Of a stretch of 64,000 bases of DNA, positions 2,590 to 36,418 are shown one piece after another. The DNA comes from an uncultured Planctomycetales bacterium (lineage in GTDB: Bacteria > Omnitrophota > Gorgyraeia > Gygaellales > Profunditerraquicolaceae): assembly GCA_964354795.1 (NCBI GenBank), contig CAYHBB010000014.1, forward strand, positions 17,249 through 81,248. The letters are read 5' to 3'. Both the position numbers and the translations under genes were made by a program. How positions within the stretch are numbered: the stretch's first letter is position 1; the number at the start of each line of letters is the position of its first letter. The notes below the pieces were generated by a model, which worked only from the letters and a program-made list of their open reading frames with translations, did not search any database and was not told the DNA's origin.

Positions 2590-4224
2590 TTATTTCTCGT
2601 AGTTGCTGATATATTTATTTATGGTGGCCTGCCTGTTTACTACAGCAGCGTCACCCTGTTCTCTCTGAGGCATCATCGCTTTTGCCGCTCTCATCGGTTT
2701 AGGCCCCTGTACAATTTCAGAAGGCTTTACGTCACGAATGATGTGCGGCGTGATAAATACCAGCAGCTCGCGCTCTTTGCCGGGGGTCTGGGACTTGTGC
2801 CGGAAAGCTGCGCCAATAAACGGCAAGTCTCCCAGAATGGGAAGCTTACTGACTACGGTGGTGGTATCATTACGGATTAAACCGCCAATAACGATAGTCT
2901 CTCCGTCTTTTAGTTTAACTACCTGCTTGGTGCTTCTTTCTTCCGGGTCTCTAAACTGAAAGGTGCCGCTTGCACCCATTTCAAAAGGCTGGCCTGCCGA
3001 AGCTGTGCTGACTTTCGGATAGACAAAAAGCGTTATTTCTCCTGCATCCACATTGATCTGTGGACTGACCCGAAGAATGACACCGGTCCAAGCACGCTCT
3101 GCCGTATTCGTAGTAGTTCCCGTACCACCTGTTGAGGTGGCAGATGAAGTTAATCCAATAGCTTCATTAGTAGCGATCCTAATCTCTGCGGTCTCATTAT
3201 TCAAGGTCATGATCCGCGGACGAGCCAAAATCTTAGTATCAGTTTGCGTAGTCAGAAAGTCGAAAGTTAATGTGCTTCCAATAAGAGTAAAGATTGAAGG
3301 CCCAAAATGAGCCGCATTCCAAGGAGCGAAATCCCAACCGCCACCGAATTGGTCGGCGGCAGGATCAATCGTCCTGCCTTTGCCACTCGTACCATTGTTG
3401 TCTCCAAAAGGCCATGATGTCTCCCTGGTACCGGAAACAGTTAAGCTTGCTAAAGTTGTCGGCCACTGCACACCCAGCTCATCCACCACGTTCTTAGCCA
3501 CATCCAGCATCTCTACTTCCAGCAATACCTGCGGAATAGCCATGTCCAACGCAGCCACAATCTGAGTGATCACTTCCATACGGCTAGGAATATCGGTAAC
3601 AATAAGGCTGTTGGTGCGGTAATCCTCGATCAACGAGCCATTAGCGGAAAGGATCTTCTTAATGGCATAGGTGATCCCTGACTCATCCTCCACCTTCCAT
3701 TTTCCCTTTTCCGTAGTACTGCTATCTGTCGTTGTACTGGTTGTTGTAGTCTCGCTTCCTGCCATCAACGTTGTGTCGCCGGTCAGATTAGTACTCATCT
3801 CTTCCTTCATGGAGGAAGAAGATACTGATGCGTTCTTAAGGTAAAAAACTTTTGTAACTGTCTCAACTGTCGGCTTTCCCCAGTCCTTTACAATAAAAAT
3901 CTTGGCCTGCTTATCCATATTATAGGAAAGGTTATTGGCCTTAAACAGATTATTCATCGCCTCGCTCAAAGGCACCTTATCCATATAGAGGGTGACTTTC
4001 CTGTCTTGAACCCCTTCTGAAGCAAGGAAATTCATTCCCGACTGGATGGAAAATACTTTCAGGACATCCTTAAGGTTAGCGTCCTGAAAATCCATAGAGA
4101 TAGTCGGCTCAACATCCGGATATGGAAGTGTTGCGTCGGCAGACAGCCTTGATACAGGTATAAACATAGCGAGCAAGAAAATAATTAAGCCTGATCTTAA
4201 ATACGATTTCATATTAACCTCCAC
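2590..4224 (-). CDS. pilQ: Secretin (PilQ/GspD family) with signal peptide. Start may be the internal MKSYLR at 4212.
   Basis: 544 aa. Signal peptide, secretin N-domains, Thr/Ser-rich linker, C-terminal secretin motifs GETIVIGGLI...LPILGDLPFIGAAFR...RELLVFITPHII. Confidence 0.85.
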   Translation of the reverse strand: MEVNMKSYLRSGLIIFLLAMFIPVSRLSADATLPYPDVEPTISMDFQDANLKDVLKVFSIQSGMNFLASEGVQDRKVTLYMDKVPLSEAMNNLFKANNLSYNMDKQAKIFIVKDWGKPTVETVTKVFYLKNASVSSSSMKEEMSTNLTGDTTLMAGSETTTTSTTTDSSTTEKGKWKVEDESGITYAIKKILSANGSLIEDYRTNSLIVTDIPSRMEVITQIVAALDMAIPQVLLEVEMLDVAKNVVDELGVQWPTTLASLTVSGTRETSWPFGDNNGTSGKGRTIDPAADQFGGGWDFAPWNAAHFGPSIFTLIGSTLTFDFLTTQTDTKILARPRIMTLNNETAEIRIATNEAIGLTSSATSTGGTGTTTNTAERAWTGVILRVSPQINVDAGEITLFVYPKVSTASAGQPFEMGASGTFQFRDPEERSTKQVVKLKDGETIVIGGLIRNDTTTVVSKLPILGDLPFIGAAFRHKSQTPGKERELLVFITPHIIRDVKPSEIVQGPKPMRAAKAMMPQREQGDAAVVNRQATINKYISNYEK

Positions 4225-18707: not shown

Positions 18708-18959
18708 TTATTTTTTTTTCTTCTTACCGCCTCTTTTCATCTTGGCGCAGGAAACATCCCCCTGCTTGTCCAAGAAATACAGGTAACCTTCTTTGCGCTT
18801 GATACCGCATTTGGCCACCTTTTTACGCATACCGCCCTTCTTCGTGCCACGTGCCATCTTGGCGCAGGAAACATCACCCTGCTTGTCGATGAAGTAAAGG
18901 TATCCTTTTTCTCTCTTGACGCCAACCTTCATTTCTTTATGTGCCATTGTCCGAATCAC
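18708..18959 (-). CDS. Small, highly basic protein made of two tandem 28-aa repeats, with a poly-Lys tail
   Basis: 83 aa. KVGVKREKGYLYFIDKQGDVSCAKMARG and KCGIKRKEGYLYFLDKQGDVSCAKMKRG. Strong SD GGAGGGAGGTG 8 nt upstream. Terminator hairpins downstream. Confidence 0.6.
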   Translation of the reverse strand: MIRTMAHKEMKVGVKREKGYLYFIDKQGDVSCAKMARGTKKGGMRKKVAKCGIKRKEGYLYFLDKQGDVSCAKMKRGGKKKKK

Positions 18960-22224: not shown

Positions 22225-22335
22225 CTTTCTCCGTTATTTCAGCACAATTCTTTTAGGGACACCCTTGAAATCAAAGCTAAAGGTGTCCCCTTGTTAGGGA
22301 CACCTTTCCGATTGGATTAAAGGGTGTCCCTACTT
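22225..22335 (-). promoter_or_regulatory. Four copies of GGGACACC(Y) in alternating orientation between dapB and dapL, forming mutually exclusive hairpins
   Basis: Plus gggacaccc (22244), ggtgtcccc (22279), gggacacct (22294), gggtgtccc (22324). 1:2 and 3:4, or 2:3 and 1:4, pairings are possible. Confidence 0.35.
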
Positions 22336-30926: not shown

Positions 30927-31781
30927 TTACTTAACTATTTCCGTACCCACGCCCTGGTTGGTGAATATTTCAAGCAATAATCCGTGCGGCGTGCGAGCGT
31001 CTACCACGTGCGTCTTGCCTACCCCCCCCTCAAGCGCGTCAATACAAGCCTTGACCTTGGGGATCATCCCCTGCTGCACTACCTTATTCTCCATCAGTCC
31101 GTTTGCTTCTTTGGTAGTCAGCGTGGAAAGAAATGAATTCGGATCATCGGGATTACGCATGATCCCTTTTACATTGGTCAACAAAACAAATTTCTCCGCC
31201 TTTAATGCCACGGCAATATGCGAAGCTGCCTCATCCGCATTGACGTTATAGGTCAACTTGTCCTTACCTACACCCATGGGAAGCACGACGGGGATCCTGT
31301 CGCTCTTAAGCTCATTTAGAATAGGCTCAGGATTGATGCCGGAAATCTGCCCTACCAGCCCAAGGTCCACCTTGCCCTTCTTCTTATCAGCCTGCACCAG
31401 CTGATGCTCCTTGCCATTTAATCCCACAGCCTTTGCCCCCAGCTCATTTAATTCTTTAACGATCAGATCATTGAGGCTCTTAAGCTCCTCCTCGACCACC
31501 ACCAGTGTCTCCTCGTCAGTAACGCGCATCCCGTCCACAAAATCCGTTTTCTTGCCGCTCTGACGCATGCGGTCGCTTATGTTTGGCCCGCCGCCGTGGA
31601 CCAACACCGGCTCTAAGCCCATGAAATTAAGAAAAACTATGTCTTCGAGAACACTCCGGCGGATCTTCTCATCACCCAAAATACTACCGCCATACTTGAT
31701 CACAACGACCTTCTTATGGAATTTCTTTATATAAGGTAACGCCTCGATTAAAACTTCCGCCTTCTTGATCGCTTCTTCCAT
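30927..31781 (-). CDS. argB: Acetylglutamate kinase
   Basis: 284 aa. VIKYGGS...VHGGGP amino-acid kinase motifs. Confidence 0.9.
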   Translation of the reverse strand: MEEAIKKAEVLIEALPYIKKFHKKVVVIKYGGSILGDEKIRRSVLEDIVFLNFMGLEPVLVHGGGPNISDRMRQSGKKTDFVDGMRVTDEETLVVVEEELKSLNDLIVKELNELGAKAVGLNGKEHQLVQADKKKGKVDLGLVGQISGINPEPILNELKSDRIPVVLPMGVGKDKLTYNVNADEAASHIAVALKAEKFVLLTNVKGIMRNPDDPNSFLSTLTTKEANGLMENKVVQQGMIPKVKACIDALEGGVGKTHVVDARTPHGLLLEIFTNQGVGTEIVK

Positions 31782-31791
31782 CTTTTCCTCT

Positions 31792-32928
31792 CTAATTATA
31801 CTCCGCGTTGATCTTTATATACTCCGGAGTCAGATCCGACGTGTATACGGTCGCTTTAGCGCTGCCCGTATTTAAGAATACCTCTACAAAAATGTCCCTT
31901 TTCTTAAGGGGGCTTACTTTTATCCTGAACAAATCTTCCTTCATATCCACTCTACTTGCTCCTACTGCCGCGACGATCCTGCCGAAATTCGGATTCTCTC
32001 CGTAAATAGCGGTCTTGAAAAGGTTGGAGTTAGCTATGGCCAAAGCAGCTGTCTTAGCCTGGGCCGCGCTCTTTGCCTTATTCACAGTGATCTGAATAAA
32101 TTTAGTAGTTCCCTCGCCATCCCTGACGATCATCTTAGCCAGCTCAAGGCAGACGATATTAAGCGCCTTGGTAAAACCGACAAGATCTTTACCGCTATTG
32201 ATCAATTTATTTTCACTTGAGCCGTTCGCCAGGATCATCACGCTATCGTTAGTACTCATGCAACCATCCACCGTGATGCAGTTAAAACTCACCGACACGC
32301 ATAAATCCAAAGCCTTATCTAAAGCGGCCTGCGAAATATTCGCATCGGTAAATATAAAAGCGAACATCGTGGCCATATTCGGCGCGATCATTCCCGCGCC
32401 CTTTGCCACGCCACAGACAGTCACAACTTTACCGCCGAGGGAAAGCTTAACAGAGATTTCCTTGGCAAAAAGGTCGGTGGTCATGATCGCCTTTTTTGCC
32501 CTGTCTATCCCCCGCTGGGAAAGCCCGCTGACTAGCTGCGGGATACCGTCAATGATCTTTGAAACCTGGAGTCTCTTGCCGATAACGCCGGTAGAGTTGA
32601 TCAATACCCGCTCTTTTTTTATCCCTAGAGCCTTGGAAACAGCTTTCGTGGTGTCCATTGCGTCCTTTAGCCCGGCAGCCCCGGTAAAGCAATTAGCGTT
32701 CCCGGAGTTTGCGATCACCGCCTGAAACACTTTGCTTTTGGCAAGGTGCTGCTTGCTTATCTTAAGGGGCGAAGCCTGAACAGTATTAGTAGTAAACTTG
32801 CAGGAGGCTTTGGCAGGGATCTCGGAATAAAACAACGCCAGGTCGGGCTTGCCGGATTTCTTCAGGCCGCAGGCGATTCCGTTTGCCTTGAACCTCTTGG
32901 GAAGCAGAGCTTTAATAAATACCTTCAT
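31792..32928 (-). CDS. argJ: Bifunctional glutamate N-acetyltransferase / amino-acid acetyltransferase
   Basis: 378 aa. ArgJ family with autoproteolytic-site region ...PNMATMFAFIFTDA. Confidence 0.9.
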   Translation of the reverse strand: MKVFIKALLPKRFKANGIACGLKKSGKPDLALFYSEIPAKASCKFTTNTVQASPLKISKQHLAKSKVFQAVIANSGNANCFTGAAGLKDAMDTTKAVSKALGIKKERVLINSTGVIGKRLQVSKIIDGIPQLVSGLSQRGIDRAKKAIMTTDLFAKEISVKLSLGGKVVTVCGVAKGAGMIAPNMATMFAFIFTDANISQAALDKALDLCVSVSFNCITVDGCMSTNDSVMILANGSSENKLINSGKDLVGFTKALNIVCLELAKMIVRDGEGTTKFIQITVNKAKSAAQAKTAALAIANSNLFKTAIYGENPNFGRIVAAVGASRVDMKEDLFRIKVSPLKKRDIFVEVFLNTGSAKATVYTSDLTPEYIKINAEYN

Positions 32929-33942
32929 TTACAGCAACGCTGTGGTCTCAGGGAACTTGTACATGATGTTCATATTCTGTACAGCCTGTCCCGACGCGCC
33001 TTTCAGTAAGTTGTCGATCGCAGAGATCACTATCACGCTCTTCGCGTCTTCCTTGATCCCGATATCGCAGAAATTCGTGCCCACAACATCCTTGAGCCTG
33101 GGAAACTCCCCCTCACTCTTTATCCGAACGAATGGCTCTAACTTGTAGAATCTTTTATAAAGATTAGTCAAATTCTGCGTCCTGCCTGTTTTCCTGACAT
33201 AAATAGTGCTCAGGAGGCCTTTTTGCAGGGGCAAAATATGCGGCACAAAAGTAACACTGACACTTTTACCGGCAAGCCTGGTAAGAATAGAGTTTATCTC
33301 GGGCATGTGCTGATGGGCATTTACTTTATACGCCCTGAAATCCTCATTCACCTCTAAGAACATCAGCCCCTTCTCAAGTTTCTTTCCCGCGCCAGACACG
33401 CCGGACTTAGCGTCGATAATGATCGATTCCTTATCGATCAAACCAAGGGCGACGAGCGGCGCAAGCGCCAAAATCGCTGAAGTCGGGTAACACCCCGGAT
33501 TGGCCACAAGCTTCGCTTTCTTGATATTCACCCTGTAAAGCTCCGGCAAACCGTAAACCGCATTCCTAAGATTAGCCGCGTCTTTATGTTTAGCATGATA
33601 AAACTTCTCGAATACTTTTATGTTCTTCAGCCGGTAATCAGCGCTCAGGTCAATGACTTTCTTGCCAAGCTTGAGGATCTTGGGCGCGAAATTCATGGAA
33701 ACAGTATGCGGCAAGGCCAGGAATACGAGGTCGCAATGATTTGCGATATCCTTCATATCCGGCTTTGTGCAGGTAAGCTCACACCTTCCTTTGAATTGAG
33801 GAAAAACATCTGAGATCTTCTGGGGCTCATCACTTGTGTTATAAAGCCTAGAGATGCGCACATCAGGATGCTTAAGAAGAACGACTATCAGTTCTTCTCC
33901 TGTATGCCCCGTCGCCCCGATTATCCCTACATTTATTGTCAT
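32929..33942 (-). CDS. argC: N-acetyl-gamma-glutamyl-phosphate reductase
   Basis: 337 aa. VGIIGATGHTGEEL...catalytic Cys in NPGCYPTS. Confidence 0.9.
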   Translation of the reverse strand: MTINVGIIGATGHTGEELIVVLLKHPDVRISRLYNTSDEPQKISDVFPQFKGRCELTCTKPDMKDIANHCDLVFLALPHTVSMNFAPKILKLGKKVIDLSADYRLKNIKVFEKFYHAKHKDAANLRNAVYGLPELYRVNIKKAKLVANPGCYPTSAILALAPLVALGLIDKESIIIDAKSGVSGAGKKLEKGLMFLEVNEDFRAYKVNAHQHMPEINSILTRLAGKSVSVTFVPHILPLQKGLLSTIYVRKTGRTQNLTNLYKRFYKLEPFVRIKSEGEFPRLKDVVGTNFCDIGIKEDAKSVIVISAIDNLLKGASGQAVQNMNIMYKFPETTALL

Positions 33943-34002
33943 ATTTTGCTCCTTAAATTTTCCTGCATTTTACTGCCGGAAAATTACCCCGAAGCCTGCG
34001 CA

Positions 34003-34023
34003 GTCAATTTCGAAGAAATTGAC
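34003..34023. promoter_or_regulatory. Perfect palindrome GTCAATTTC-gaa-GAAATTGAC in the argC leader; candidate ArgR-type operator
   Basis: gtcaatttcgaagaaattgac, 9/9 inverted repeat around a 3-nt centre. Lies between the arg promoter and the argC ATG. TCAAT...ATTGA half-sites are reminiscent of ARG boxes. Confidence 0.35.
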
Positions 34024-34058
34024 AAGCGCCTAGGCGAGGGGTTAAATACATATCGTCC

Positions 34059-34087
34059 ATAATAGTGTAAAATCCGTCGGTAGTCAA
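34059..34087 (-). promoter_or_regulatory. Sigma70-like promoter of the arg-lys-dap superoperon (TTGACT-17-TATTAT)
   Basis: Plus agtcaa 34082-34087 and ataata 34059-34064; 17-nt spacer; about 115 nt upstream of the argC ATG. Confidence 0.4.
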
Positions 34088-34099
34088 GTATTTTCTCGT

Positions 34100-34480
34100 C
34101 GATAATACCAACTAAATATTACTACACAGCGTCTCGCTAAACACTCATGGCGGGTTGGCTTGTCTTGTTTCTCGCTGACTAGGGTTATCGCCTGCCTTGT
34201 CCTGTTTCTCGCGGGGGCGCTCGTTTTGCCCCTGCGAGGCAAAACTTCGCTCGGCCTGCGGACCTCGCTCTCACCTGCAAGTGATAGCGGGTGATCCATG
34301 CCCGCTCGGTTCCTCGGACGCCCCGCTCGAAATCAGGCCAAGTCAGCCGCTAACAACAAGCTTGCTGATAAATGGTAGGTTTAGCGGGTGGCTTGGCTTG
34401 ATCCGAGCACGGCCATAAGCCGCGCGCAGGACAAGCCAAGACAGGACCCGCTAAACCCTAGAGTCGCCCCAGCTTTTTAT
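34100..34480. other. GC-rich, hairpin- and repeat-dense intergenic element of about 380 nt; candidate structured ncRNA of unassigned family
   Basis: GC well above the flanks. Long hairpin 34376-34462 (ggtttagcgggtggcttggcttg...caagccaagacaggacccgctaaacc). Hairpins gttttgcc/ggcaaaac and agcggg/cccgct. Repeated motifs CGCTAAAC (x4), CTTGTCYTGTTTCTCGC (x2), CGCTCG (x5). Bounded by the bidirectional terminator at 34491-34524. Confidence 0.3.
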
Positions 34481-34490
34481 AGAACCGTCC

Positions 34491-34524
34491 AAATAAAAAA
34501 CCCCGCTTTCCAGCGGAGTTTTTG
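34491..34524 (-). terminator. Rho-independent (bidirectional) terminator downstream of rpsI
   Basis: aaaaaaccccgc-tttcca-gcgg-ag-tttttg: hairpin flanked by an A-run and a T-run, 40 nt after the rpsI stop. Confidence 0.55.
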
Positions 34525-34565
34525 TTGTAATCTACTTTTTCTGACGCTACGTCTTTAATTCTCCT

Positions 34566-34961
34566 TTAACGTTTCGTCCACTGGAAGCGTTTGCGAGCGC
34601 CTTTCTGCCCGTACTTTTTGCGCTCTTTTGCGCGCGGGTCGCGGGTCAAATAGCCATTCTTACGCAGCATATCCTTTAGCTCAGAATCAGCCATGACCAA
34701 TGCGCGGGATATCCCCAAACGAATTGCCCCGGCCTGGCCGGTAAGGCCACCACCGTTAAGATTAGCTATCACATCAAACTTAGCCGTGGTATTGGTCAAT
34801 ACCAAAGGCTGCGTGACAATGATCCTGTCAGTTTCCCTCAGGAAATATTTGTTGTACGGCAAAGAATTGACCGTGATAGTGCCTTTGCCGTGCAAAAGCT
34901 GCACCCGCGCCACTGATTCCTTACGTCTTCCGATTGCCGAGAATTTTGTTGCCTGTTCCAT
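34566..34961 (-). CDS. rpsI: 30S ribosomal protein S9
   Basis: 131 aa. ...[12 protein letters not shown]...[19 protein letters not shown]...[17 protein letters not shown]. Confidence 0.95.
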
Positions 34962-35004: not shown

Positions 35005-35442
35005 TTAGGGCTTGACCTCCAGAACTACCGGATTCTGCGCCACCTGCTGGTGCTTATCATCCGCGTAGATTTTCAATTTTTTCAGTAACTGCCTGCCCAG
35101 CGGCCCGCCGGGAAGCATGCGCCTGATTGCCAACCTCATCACTGTCGCCGGCTTCTTGGCTAAAAGCGTTTCCAGAGTGACTTCACGCAAGCCGCCCGGA
35201 TAACCCGAATAGCGGCGATAAACCTTTTGGGACATCTTTCGGCCGGTGACCTTGATCTTGGCGGCGTTTATGATCACTACGCCGTCTCCGGTATCAAGAT
35301 GCGGGCTGAATATCGGCTTATGCTTTCCGCGCAAGATTACTGCTACTTTAGCTGCAACTCTGCCCAGAATCTTATCCTTAGCGTCAATTATGAACCACTC
35401 TCTCTTGATATCACCTTTTTTAGCAACGTATGTCTTATTCAT
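35005..35442 (-). CDS. rplM: 50S ribosomal protein L13
   Basis: 145 aa. KREWFIIDAKDKILGRVAAKVAVILRGKHKP... Confidence 0.95.
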   Translation of the reverse strand: MNKTYVAKKGDIKREWFIIDAKDKILGRVAAKVAVILRGKHKPIFSPHLDTGDGVVIINAAKIKVTGRKMSQKVYRRYSGYPGGLREVTLETLLAKKPATVMRLAIRRMLPGGPLGRQLLKKLKIYADDKHQQVAQNPVVLEVKP

Positions 35443-35552: not shown

Positions 35553-35638
35553 ATAAAATCTTTATAATTCTTTTTAGGCCGACTAGACCTTTCTGGGCTA
35601 GACCTTTTTTATAGGATAAAAAGTCTGCCCTTTCTGGG

Positions 35639-36418
35639 CTATACCCTTAGATACTTACGGGACATGCCGACAATGAATAGCGGGGTAATAAAAACTCCGC
35701 AAAACGCCTCAATCATGGCAAGAGCCCTGGTAAGGCCTATTGGGTTGATATCCCCATAACCTACAGTTGTAAAAGTTATAGCGCTGAAATACATCGCGCT
35801 GAAAATGTTGGGCCGGAACACCTCATTATCAGCCTCAAGCCTGCCAAACGTATACAAAAACGCCATTGCAAAGATTATCAAGATGGCGAATAAAAACGTC
35901 CTCAGCGGCCGCTCTCCGTAACCCCAGAGCATCGCGGCAAAAGTAAGGCCCAGCCAGTGATATGTTCGCTTTAATATCTCATGCGTCCACTTCTGACCCT
36001 TGCCTGTGCTGATATTATGGATCCTCTTAGGATTAAAAATACTAAACATCAGGTACCTGCGCTGCGACTCCTTGGAAGCGTAAAAACAATCCGAATATTT
36101 CATAAACTCCATATCTTTTTCATAATTGATCGCGGCATACCTGTAGAGCAATGCGGCATACTCATAGTCCCCCGCTTTCTCCGCCTCGGATGCCGCCGAT
36201 TCGTAGGAGATAGCCGCGTTCTGGAGCGCCTTCTCCCCCTGCCTCAGCGCCCAACAGCTTGCCGCGGAAGAGAAGCATAACGACGACTCTTTATGACTGC
36301 CTGCCGCGCTGTAAAGATCACCTGCCTCGCGGAAAGCGTGAAAGGCATCCTCGTATTTTGTCTCGACTAATAAATCGTAAGCCTTCTTTTCAAATACGCG
36401 CGGGTCCTTCTTTTCCAT
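35639..36418 (-). CDS. Potassium channel family protein (2-TM pore domain with TVGYGD filter) with an N-terminal cytoplasmic helical domain
   Basis: 259 aa. C-terminal M1-pore-M2 with FSAITFTTVGYGDINP selectivity filter; N-terminal ~150 aa is helical and soluble. Confidence 0.7.
   Translation of the reverse strand: MEKKDPRVFEKKAYDLLVETKYEDAFHAFREAGDLYSAAGSHKESSLCFSSAASCWALRQGEKALQNAAISYESAASEAEKAGDYEYAALLYRYAAINYEKDMEFMKYSDCFYASKESQRRYLMFSIFNPKRIHNISTGKGQKWTHEILKRTYHWLGLTFAAMLWGYGERPLRTFLFAILIIFAMAFLYTFGRLEADNEVFRPNIFSAMYFSAITFTTVGYGDINPIGLTRALAMIEAFCGVFITPLFIVGMSRKYLRV

Follow-up and report, generated by a model that had tools for sequence, protein, structure and literature searches.

In the window analyzed here, a 64-kb stretch of DNA, the 623-nucleotide (nt) spacer between rpsI and argC houses a GC-rich structured stretch. 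We found that positions 34128-34457 are very probably a composite of copies of a dispersed repeat family whose structure is conserved, and we use E as the name of the repeat element and R1 as that of a covariance model built from one of its two groups, group A. An earlier interpretation made from the letters of the window (the sequence-only reading) had treated the stretch as one element of about 380 nt and a candidate RNA; neither a single RNA gene of that size nor a gene specific to this locus was supported. The stretch consists instead of two opposite-strand copies of one element together with a duplicated arm fragment, and the element is a dispersed, multi-copy repeat without a promoter or terminator of its own and with near-random orientation relative to genes. 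E thus explains the odd GC-rich structured spacer without a missing housekeeping RNA.

What had been described of the stretch itself was mostly borne out. It is non-coding and strongly structured: GC content is elevated (0.545-0.60 in 34100-34499 versus 0.43-0.50 in the flanks), the open reading frames (ORFs) that cross it are all short (44-73 amino acids), and folding of 34090-34490 gave z = -4.9 for the minus strand and -4.7 for the plus strand against dinucleotide shuffles, with 0 of 100 shuffles as good. The long imperfect hairpin was recovered at 34378-34457, and CTTGTCYTGTTTCTCGC does occur twice, 37 nt apart. Two repeat counts required correction. CGCTAAAC is repeated, but as two direct copies and one inverted copy rather than three and one, and those three are its sole matches in the window; CGCTCG is also repeated, but with four exact copies and the near-match CGCTCT rather than five copies. 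The window as a whole has only 19 matches to CGCTCG; the four exact copies here are confined to 112 nt, and their positions coincide with GAGCG modules of the complete E copy.

R1 matched the window only twice, both times at this locus, and a repeat search over the 64 kb revealed no further copy. The complete copy is about 171 nt long, with the outermost pairing spanning 34184-34354; its structure was derived from the group A alignment and from pair counts on a 113-sequence alignment. An internally deleted copy, or mini, stands head to head with it. The parts of the composite, with helices numbered P1 to P4, are as follows.

34184-34354, minus strand: complete E copy (R1 match 34177-34358, 170.4 bits, E-value = 1e-52, full model)
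34319-34354, minus strand: complete copy, P1 5' arm
34308-34316, minus strand: complete copy, P2 5' strand
34295-34307, minus strand: complete copy, invariant loop GAGCGGGCAUGGA
34271-34294, minus strand: complete copy, P3 hairpin
34265-34270, minus strand: complete copy, GAGCGA
34255-34264, minus strand: complete copy, P2 3' strand
34245-34254, minus strand: complete copy, CCGAGCGAAG
34224-34244, minus strand: complete copy, P4 hairpin with loop UCGCAGG
34218-34223, minus strand: complete copy, CGAGCG
34184-34217, minus strand: complete copy, P1 3' arm
34379-34457, plus strand: mini (internally deleted) E copy (R1 match 34376-34459, 49.6 bits, E-value = 2.5e-14)
34355-34378, no strand: 24-nt spacer separating the head-to-head copies at their 5' ends, with the palindrome CAAGCTTG
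34128-34183, minus strand: duplicated 3'-arm fragment (GCGAGAAACAAGACAAGCC...) and the stretch up to the promoter

The mini is the long hairpin of about 40 base pairs (bp) in the sequence-only reading. It retains the two P1 arms along with the conserved termini UUUAGCGGGUGGC...GACAGGACCCGCUAAA, and 101 core model positions are reduced to a 4-nt loop. The 3' arm of the complete copy shows a 37-nt tandem duplication, seen as a direct repeat of 17-20 nt (34156-34175 / 34193-34212) and as a weak nhmmer match at 34157-34178. This duplication is specific to the genome of the window: in a pairwise alignment, the closest relative (L001, 94% ArgC identity) has a 37-column gap at that place. The distal arm is the sole 3' arm in L001, where an additional solo arm fragment is also present. 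The mini is nearly identical in the two genomes, and their complete copies are distinguished by compensatory changes and by a swap of the whole P2 helix (GGAACC/GGUCC in the window versus GCCCC/GGGGC in L001). Since each P2 version is also found in copies from other genomes, exchange between copies is suggested.

Relatives of the locus were collected by an ArgC search with one genome per species, which yielded 80 loci (L001-L080), almost all of them from metagenome-assembled genomes (MAGs) of Candidatus Omnitrophota. A profile of the core of about 160 nt found copies in a minority of the rpsI-argC spacers, in either orientation, and in L032 and L010 it also matched another spacer, unrelated to this one. 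Because copies occupy few of these spacers, lie in both orientations and occur in unrelated spacers as well, we regard E as a repeat and not as a locus-specific gene. Metagenomes were searched with a degenerate core pattern, AGCGGGCANGG...GAGCGA...CNCGCNGGG, which gave at least 120 matches in metagenome contigs and none in viral contigs; blastn of plasmids with two family members gave no match. Of the 80 argC loci, 10 were matched by R1, with 15 matches in all and 13 of these in the rpsI-argC spacer. The window and 99 metagenomic loci together gave 113 matches, 111 of them outside the window, so that significant matches beyond the window amount to 126 in 1.35 Mb of related and metagenomic DNA. 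GC content ranges from 0.39 to 0.79 among the R1 matches and from 0.33 to 0.67 among the loci.

The copies come in two flavours, group A, which resembles the copy in the window, and group B, which shares the common interior only and has different terminal stems. A high-GC locus of group A (L179) encodes a NuoD that is 86-87% identical to Omnitrophica MAG proteins, and a locus of group B (L193) encodes an RpsI that is 85% identical to an Aminicenantes MAG protein. From these sequence identities, with one tested locus each, group A was provisionally assigned to Omnitrophota and group B to Aminicenantes/Acidobacteriota; if these single loci are representative, the family is common to two unrelated phyla from similar habitats. 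E is absent from Rfam 15, and no description of it was found in the searchable full-text literature on Omnitrophota/Omnitrophica with RNA and repeat terms.

The E unit measures about 165-175 nt, has sharp ends and folds on one specific strand. Single-sequence folding was unreliable for the outermost helix, so alignments and the covariance model were used. P1, a terminal stem of about 35 bp in which G.A mismatches recur at regular intervals, closes a three-way junction, and its termini UUAGCGGGUGGC / GACAGGACCCGCUAA are conserved in group A. One junction arm, P2-P3, bears an invariant internal loop, GAGCGGGCAnGG(U)U / (A)GAGCGA, between its helices; the other, P4, is capped by CnCGCnGGGG. The invariance of those motifs that belong to the metagenomic search pattern is partly an ascertainment effect of that pattern. 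A GAGC...GCGA module, in which tandem G.A / A.G lies between G-C pairs, recurs three to four times per element and is the reason for the CGCTCG repeats that the sequence-only reading had noticed.

Covariation in relatives, which had been proposed as a check on the stretch, was examined and revealed strong compensatory pairing for the element. RNAalifold on a plain MAFFT alignment gave 35 pairs, 29 with compensatory changes, for group A and 40 pairs, 20 with compensatory changes, for group B. In the 113-sequence R1 alignment a standard pair occupies 94.4% of the sequence-by-pair cells, as against 62% in shuffles and 32-49% with slid partners; double-sided changes occur in 33 of the 35 pairs, and the covariation score is 0.604 versus 0.150 in shuffles. 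This larger alignment was fitted to the model, and the same helices appear in the model-free alignments of groups A and B. Pairing is strand-asymmetric, with 116 G-U/U-G against 39 A-C/C-A combinations, which indicates that one particular strand is the folded one, and the central tandem G.A is kept in 99 and 107 of the 113 copies. This asymmetry fits RNA but does not prove it, because folded single-stranded DNA also tolerates G.T and tandem G.A mismatches.

The fold persists in copies that have long been separate. Copies on the same contig are old and diverged (inner identity 0.58-0.84, arms often 0.3-0.7, L129 excepted), and all helices are kept. The three copies in L129 differ in the sequences of P2, P3 and P4, yet all of these helices pair. 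A general rule of genome-specific homogenised arms was considered and rejected, as it holds in L129 alone; the arms of group B covary freely.

No known RNA family accounted for the stretch. Rfam at gathering scores gave no match over the whole window, and at E-value <= 10 the region 33900-34620 gave only chance microRNA-like and leader-like matches. Among 26 related loci nothing relevant appeared either: 12 loci scanned at gathering scores gave only a tRNA, and at E-value <= 1 another 10 gave only tRNAs and 4 only chance matches. The hammerhead, twister, twister-sister, pistol, hatchet, hairpin, HDV-like and glmS families had no Rfam match in the window copy at E-value <= 10 or in the scanned loci at E-value <= 1.

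Across the loci, the neighbours of E are unrelated housekeeping genes, including those for EF-G, TGT, nuo subunits, thioredoxin and ABC transporters, and further a peptidase, a histidine kinase, a GH1 protein, FtsEX and a pyridoxal phosphate (PLP) enzyme. The gene downstream of a copy lies on the same strand in 41 cases and on the opposite strand in 30, and the gene upstream in 33 and 34, so that orientation is near random. Antisense copies occur inside operons, for example in L149 and L179. Copies are dense in some contigs, with three in the 6-kb L129 and two within 1-2 kb in L154, L169, L095 and L118, and in these five contigs almost every spacer contains one.

We found no partner protein among 408 clustered neighbouring ORFs, with Pfam/NCBIfam searches of recurrent neighbours and of genes between two copies; these were housekeeping or miscellaneous genes, and no protein family recurred beside E. 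No transposase, reverse transcriptase, nuclease or RAYT-like gene lay beside those copies in the fetched loci that nhmmer had detected (84 matches), and the loci analyzed showed no IscB, TnpB or IS110 gene close to a copy. Signals of expression were looked for as well. In a positional scan a -10-like hexamer occurred in at most 6% of copies at any offset, equal to the control, and the AT profile was also negative. T-runs downstream were not enriched (18% versus 19% in the control), and upstream of the 5' end, TAGCGG, no sequence information extended beyond about 5 nt (position -5). The copies thus show neither a promoter of their own at a fixed distance nor a terminator of their own, as an independent small-RNA gene would have.

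Some arrangements of copies around genes were recorded in passing. A head-to-head E pair occupies L179:7703-7901 in the nuo operon, between nuoD and a fused nuoE/F, on an Omnitrophota contig of about 60% GC; the more complete copy of this pair is antisense to the operon. Inverted E pairs bracket single genes or pairs of genes at L169:2127-3892, L095:463-1662, L118:2443-4594 and L147:5384-7033, where the enclosed genes encode a GH1 glycosidase, an AbiEii-like nucleotidyltransferase, FtsE/FtsX and a DUF3800 protein. These may be chance products of repeat-dense genomes or a cassette-like arrangement.

The rpsI-argC spacer offers a view of E at orthologous sites. The two genes are adjacent in 68 loci, where the spacer is mostly 140-200 nt long and holds the terminator and promoter only, as at the empty sites in L018 and L006; a scattered subset has spacers of 300-660 nt. 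The sequence-only reading had expected that a lack of conservation in relatives would point to junk or to the remnant of a repeat. The orthologous spacer is indeed empty in most relatives, but the element itself is conserved with strong covariation. Wherever two copies are adjacent they stand head to head (7 of 7 pairs: the window, L001, L042, L124, L155, L175 and L179), with 13-40 nt between their 5' ends. By our own arithmetic, chance would produce this with a probability of about 2e-4, taking 1/4 for each pair and counting the window and L001 once.

Shortened forms also recur. Minis are about 80-90 nt long, and L030 and L068 have independent arm-only minis that match in size but differ in their covarying stems. 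Footprints consist of the outermost 8-bp stem of E, namely TTAACGGG|ACCCGTTA in L010 (about 3868-3885) and TTAACGGTGATAAACCTTGACGCCGCCCGTTA in L008 (401-440), and both sit exactly at the position of a full copy in the near-identical L007; they look like the result of hairpin-mediated deletion. L007 itself carries E on the plus strand, whereas L008 carries E on the minus strand, repeat Y (described below) and, at the position of the plus-strand copy of L007, the footprint alone. A simple in-place inversion between the two was ruled out. Because their copies are only 79% identical and L008 retains a footprint, the opposite orientations point to differential loss from an ancestral head-to-head pair. 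As for insertion, about 75 copies showed no direct repeat outside the terminal stem that would mark a target-site duplication, in a material in which the ends are inexact and L007, L008 and L010 offer footprints and not clean empty sites. Paired copies are too diverged for local self-alignment to show partial inverted copies in the flanks.

Two further repeats accompany E. Repeat Y is a long hairpin of about 185 nt with conserved motifs such as UGCUGCGGUUUACG and UUCUAAUG, for which 28 pairs were found, 11 with compensatory changes; it has no Rfam match and is not present in the window. In seven loci Y precedes E on its 5' side by 30-110 nt, on the same strand; three of these loci are outside the rpsI-argC spacer, in unrelated contexts. 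Repeat Z is palindromic, TATAGGTATCTGATTGTTTTCTCGC ... ACTATCAGATACCTATA. Some genomes have it in the rpsI-argC spacer, and an unrelated metagenomic contig carries it again at 92% identity. E, Y and Z cluster together in the same spacer in a mosaic-like manner. Their positions are listed here.

L135:43-231: Y beside E
L032:3516-3691: Y beside E
L081:2556-2743, minus strand: Y beside E
L008:207-388, minus strand: Y beside E
L010:3658-3847, minus strand: Y beside E
L086:217-380, minus strand: Y beside E
L022:3459-3657: Y beside E
L019, L048, L012, L068 and L011: Y alone
L052:1832-2091: Z
L113:262-449: Z
L050, L012 and L135: parts of Z

The interpretation toward which we lean, with some reserve, is that E is an interspersed element resembling repetitive extragenic palindromes (REPs), enterobacterial repetitive intergenic consensus (ERIC) sequences and transposable elements of the miniature inverted-repeat type (MITEs), which spreads, recombines and decays by way of a folded single strand bound by a trans-acting factor. 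E would be non-autonomous, its folded single strand, whether DNA or RNA, would be recognized by that factor, and it would spread or recombine in this folded form; hairpin-mediated deletion would then turn it into minis and footprints. E is probably mobile. In favour of this interpretation are the dispersal of E among unrelated genes in near-random orientation, its presence or absence at orthologous sites, its minis and footprints, the lack of expression signals, the head-to-head pairs, the clustering with Y and Z, the suggested exchange of P2 between copies and the spread over two phyla. At the locus in the window it is probably inert, with no role for rpsI or argC, because it is insulated by the rpsI terminator and placed upstream of the argC promoter.

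Each of these known systems shares a part of its features with E. ERIC/IRU sequences are likewise imperfect palindromes of 100-200 nt that lie in multiple copies between genes, operons included, without a fixed orientation; orthologous sites may have or lack them, their conservation reaches past the genus, and no transposase is known for them. Compensatory substitutions that point to selection on a folded transcript have been reported for ERIC. Unlike ERIC, which is a simple long hairpin, E branches at a three-way junction in its core and has invariant loops together with tandem G.A modules; it spans two phyla and 33-67% GC, forms head-to-head pairs in 7 of 7 cases and has no sequence similarity to ERIC. 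The REP/BIME/REPIN systems resemble E as structured intergenic palindromes whose foot is conserved while the stem varies, which the E minis show too; they often form inverted doublets, comparable to the head-to-head pairs, and mosaic clusters, comparable to those of E with Y and Z, they can fill most spacers in some genomes and they fold as strand-specific single strands. However, REPs are 20-40 nt long, have a conserved 5' tetranucleotide, occur in hundreds of copies and do not extend beyond one species or genus; E measures about 170 nt and has a conserved complex core, and even its minis measure about 80-90 nt. In the fetched loci no copy had a Y1/RAYT-like gene beside it.

MITEs such as Correia/NEMIS, RUP and Nezha are, like E, small, non-coding and dispersed, have inverted-repeat ends and nest with other repeats. 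E has terminal inverted repeats (the P1 arms of about 35 nt), is present in many copies at polymorphic sites, and has derivatives in which the interior is deleted and the ends are retained. Target-site duplications were not seen in about 75 copies, and a parent insertion sequence (IS) with matching ends was not found among the neighbours of the nhmmer-detected copies in the fetched loci. A usual MITE has conserved ends and a free interior, and E shows the reverse, with a conserved, covarying interior and free arms in group B. RNAs linked to mobile elements, namely HEARO/IscB omega RNA, the IS605-orfB motifs and IS110 bridge RNAs, and orphan motifs, Acido-Lenti-1 among them, are also 150-300 nt long, structured, multi-copy and patchy across phyla, and some of their copies stand alone without a protein gene, as do copies of E. 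Their Rfam families do not match E, however, and IscB, TnpB and IS110 were unseen near its copies. Guide-bearing omega and bridge RNAs are not known to be closed by pairing of their own 5' and 3' ends, whereas E is closed in that way.

Several results weigh against a selfish, REP/ERIC/MITE-like element. Although the copies are old and diverged, 94.4% of the cells remain paired and 33 of 35 pairs carry compensatory changes; that diverged copies still pair looks like purifying selection on each copy and not like neutral selfish decay. The unpaired core is invariant over 33-67% GC and two phyla, partly owing to the search pattern, and the strand-specific pairing (116 G-U against 39 A-C, with tandem G.A kept in 99 and 107 of 113 copies) is typical of functional RNA. 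To these are added the lack of visible target-site duplications in about 75 copies and of a transposase, reverse transcriptase or RAYT-like gene near the copies in the fetched loci. Mobility is a property that we infer, and the orientation differences at one locus are explained by differential loss from an ancestral head-to-head pair.

The alternative that fares best, and which we consider possible while placing it below an even chance, is that E represents a new class of functional structured RNA with several diverged paralogues per genome; candidates are a ribozyme that cleaves itself, an RNA that binds proteins or acts as a sponge, and a mobile element at the RNA level. On this view the minus-strand copy in the window would function as a gene, and the plus-strand mini would be a defunct remnant. 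The excess of paired cells over shuffled and slid controls, the covariation score about which the shuffles fall far short (0.604 versus 0.150) and the compensatory changes in the model-free alignments (29 of 35 pairs in group A, 20 of 40 in group B) are what such an RNA should show, as are the strand asymmetry with conserved GAGC...GCGA modules, internal-loop and hairpin-loop nucleotides that stay invariant across two phyla and a wide GC range, and the retention of P2, P3 and P4 in the diverged copies of L129. The ordered arrangement of Y and E on the same strand in seven loci could mean a larger, two-domain RNA. Such traits would not be expected of a MITE under neutral decay. In contrast, promoter and terminator signals at a fixed distance are absent, as is sequence information outside the element, and orientation to genes and operons is near random, including the antisense copies in L149 and L179. 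The 13-40 nt between head-to-head 5' ends are too little for two promoters, the window copy has a strong terminator on one side and the argC promoter on the other, and the crowding in some contigs, one copy to each spacer, is what repeats and not genes would show. The tolerance of folded single-stranded DNA for G.T and tandem G.A also deprives the mismatch pattern of part of its force.

A more specific version, in which E is an undescribed structured RNA class of Omnitrophota and Aminicenantes defined by its three-way-junction core, the loops GAGCGGGCAnGG / GAGCGA and CnCGCnGGGG and the tandem G.A modules, seems to us possible but less likely than not. Such an RNA could be self-cleaving or self-mobilising, or could be the RNA partner of a protein, possibly as a two-domain molecule with Y, and its repeat-like spread would follow from that activity. 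The element proposed above, which spreads through a folded single strand, and a functional RNA overlap as explanations, because a selfish element that needs its fold would show the genomics of a repeat together with the covariation of an RNA.

A cis-regulatory role, as a 5' leader or riboswitch of argCJB or as a 3'-untranslated-region stabiliser or attenuator of rplM-rpsI, is largely refuted and very improbable. It could draw on the complete copies that lie between rpsI and argC and on their strand in the window, L001, L007, L022, L032 and L042, and on the 13 of 15 R1 matches of the 80 argC loci that fall in this spacer. Against it, the argC promoter is downstream of the element and the rpsI terminator upstream, L008 and L010 have the opposite-strand copy, and most relatives lack the element at this site. 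ArgC occurs in none of the 120 metagenomic loci collected, nearly all of which have a copy, and RpsI only in L193. A riboswitch or leader in general likewise found no support in the downstream strand counts of 41 and 30, the unrelated functions of the downstream genes and the placement of the argC promoter.

A divergent housekeeping RNA, which only the overall size and high structure of the stretch would suggest, has a negligible chance of being correct, since the region comprises two elements on opposite strands that are multi-copy per genome and absent here in most relatives, ARAGORN found no tRNA or tmRNA gene in the window and Rfam gave no match at gathering scores. As the sequence-only reading had already reported for two of the three candidates, tmRNA and RNase P RNA are not recognizable here: tmRNA had no Rfam match at E-value <= 10, and RNase P RNA had no match to its P4/CR-I to CR-V core at gathering scores or at E-value <= 10 and is further countered by the multiple copies and by a site that is empty in most relatives. 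For 6S RNA, which that reading had left as a candidate, the Rfam check that it had suggested also returned no match even at E-value <= 10, and the fold is a three-way junction and not a rod with a central bubble, present in up to three copies in 6 kb (L129), where a genome would have one or two copies of 6S RNA.

Omnitrophota and Aminicenantes are abundant, uncultivated and poorly annotated, and R1 with the consensus structure can be used for a repeat that inflates the intergenic regions of their genomes. A branched conserved core, tandem G.A modules and covariation that spans phyla are unusual for interspersed repeats. Either a selfish element depends on a demanding single-strand fold, which implies a recognition enzyme, or a new class of functional RNA is hidden among repeats. 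How such elements are copied and lost can be approached through the rule of head-to-head pairing, through the minis that consist of arms alone and through the exact footprints.

All genes around the GC-rich stretch are on the minus strand, and its borders are as the sequence-only reading had claimed, with a terminator of the bidirectional type on one side and the argC promoter on the other.

35005-35442, minus strand: rplM (Ribosomal_L13)
34566-34961, minus strand: rpsI
34491-34526, no strand: rpsI intrinsic terminator, from the sequence and a terminator scan; rpsI-side border of the repeat nest
34059-34107, minus strand: argC promoter block, from a promoter scan; argC-side border, outside the repeat
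32929-33942, minus strand: argC
31792-32928, minus strand: argJ
30927-31781, minus strand: argB

The rpsI terminator contains the hairpin CCGCTTTCCAGCGG at 34503-34516 and is able to work in both directions because the hairpin is flanked by an A-run on one side and a T-run on the other; it is conserved in related loci. The argC promoter is sigma-70-like, TTGACT-17-TATTAT at 34087-34059 on the argC strand, and is preceded by CGACGAGAAAA; the block is conserved in most of the 80 loci by blastn and in the spacer sequences. The arrangement of CGACGAGAAAA, a few bases and TTGAC(T/G)-17-TATTnT is kept across Omnitrophota even where the remaining spacer diverges, and the CGACGAGAAAA box upstream of the -35 region could be an operator or an UP-like element.

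Three other repeats were noticed in the window. An inverted repeat at 22254-22332 has 36-nt arms that are 81% complementary and 7 nt apart (TAGGGACACCCTT...AAGGGTGTCCCTA), without sequence relation to E. Positions 18720-18802 and 18837-18919 form an 83-nt direct repeat, 80% identical and 117 nt apart. Just upstream of rplM, the AT-rich region 35588-35648 holds two copies, 41 nt apart, of the 20-nt direct repeat CCTTTCTGGGCTAGACCTTT, which could belong to the rplM leader.

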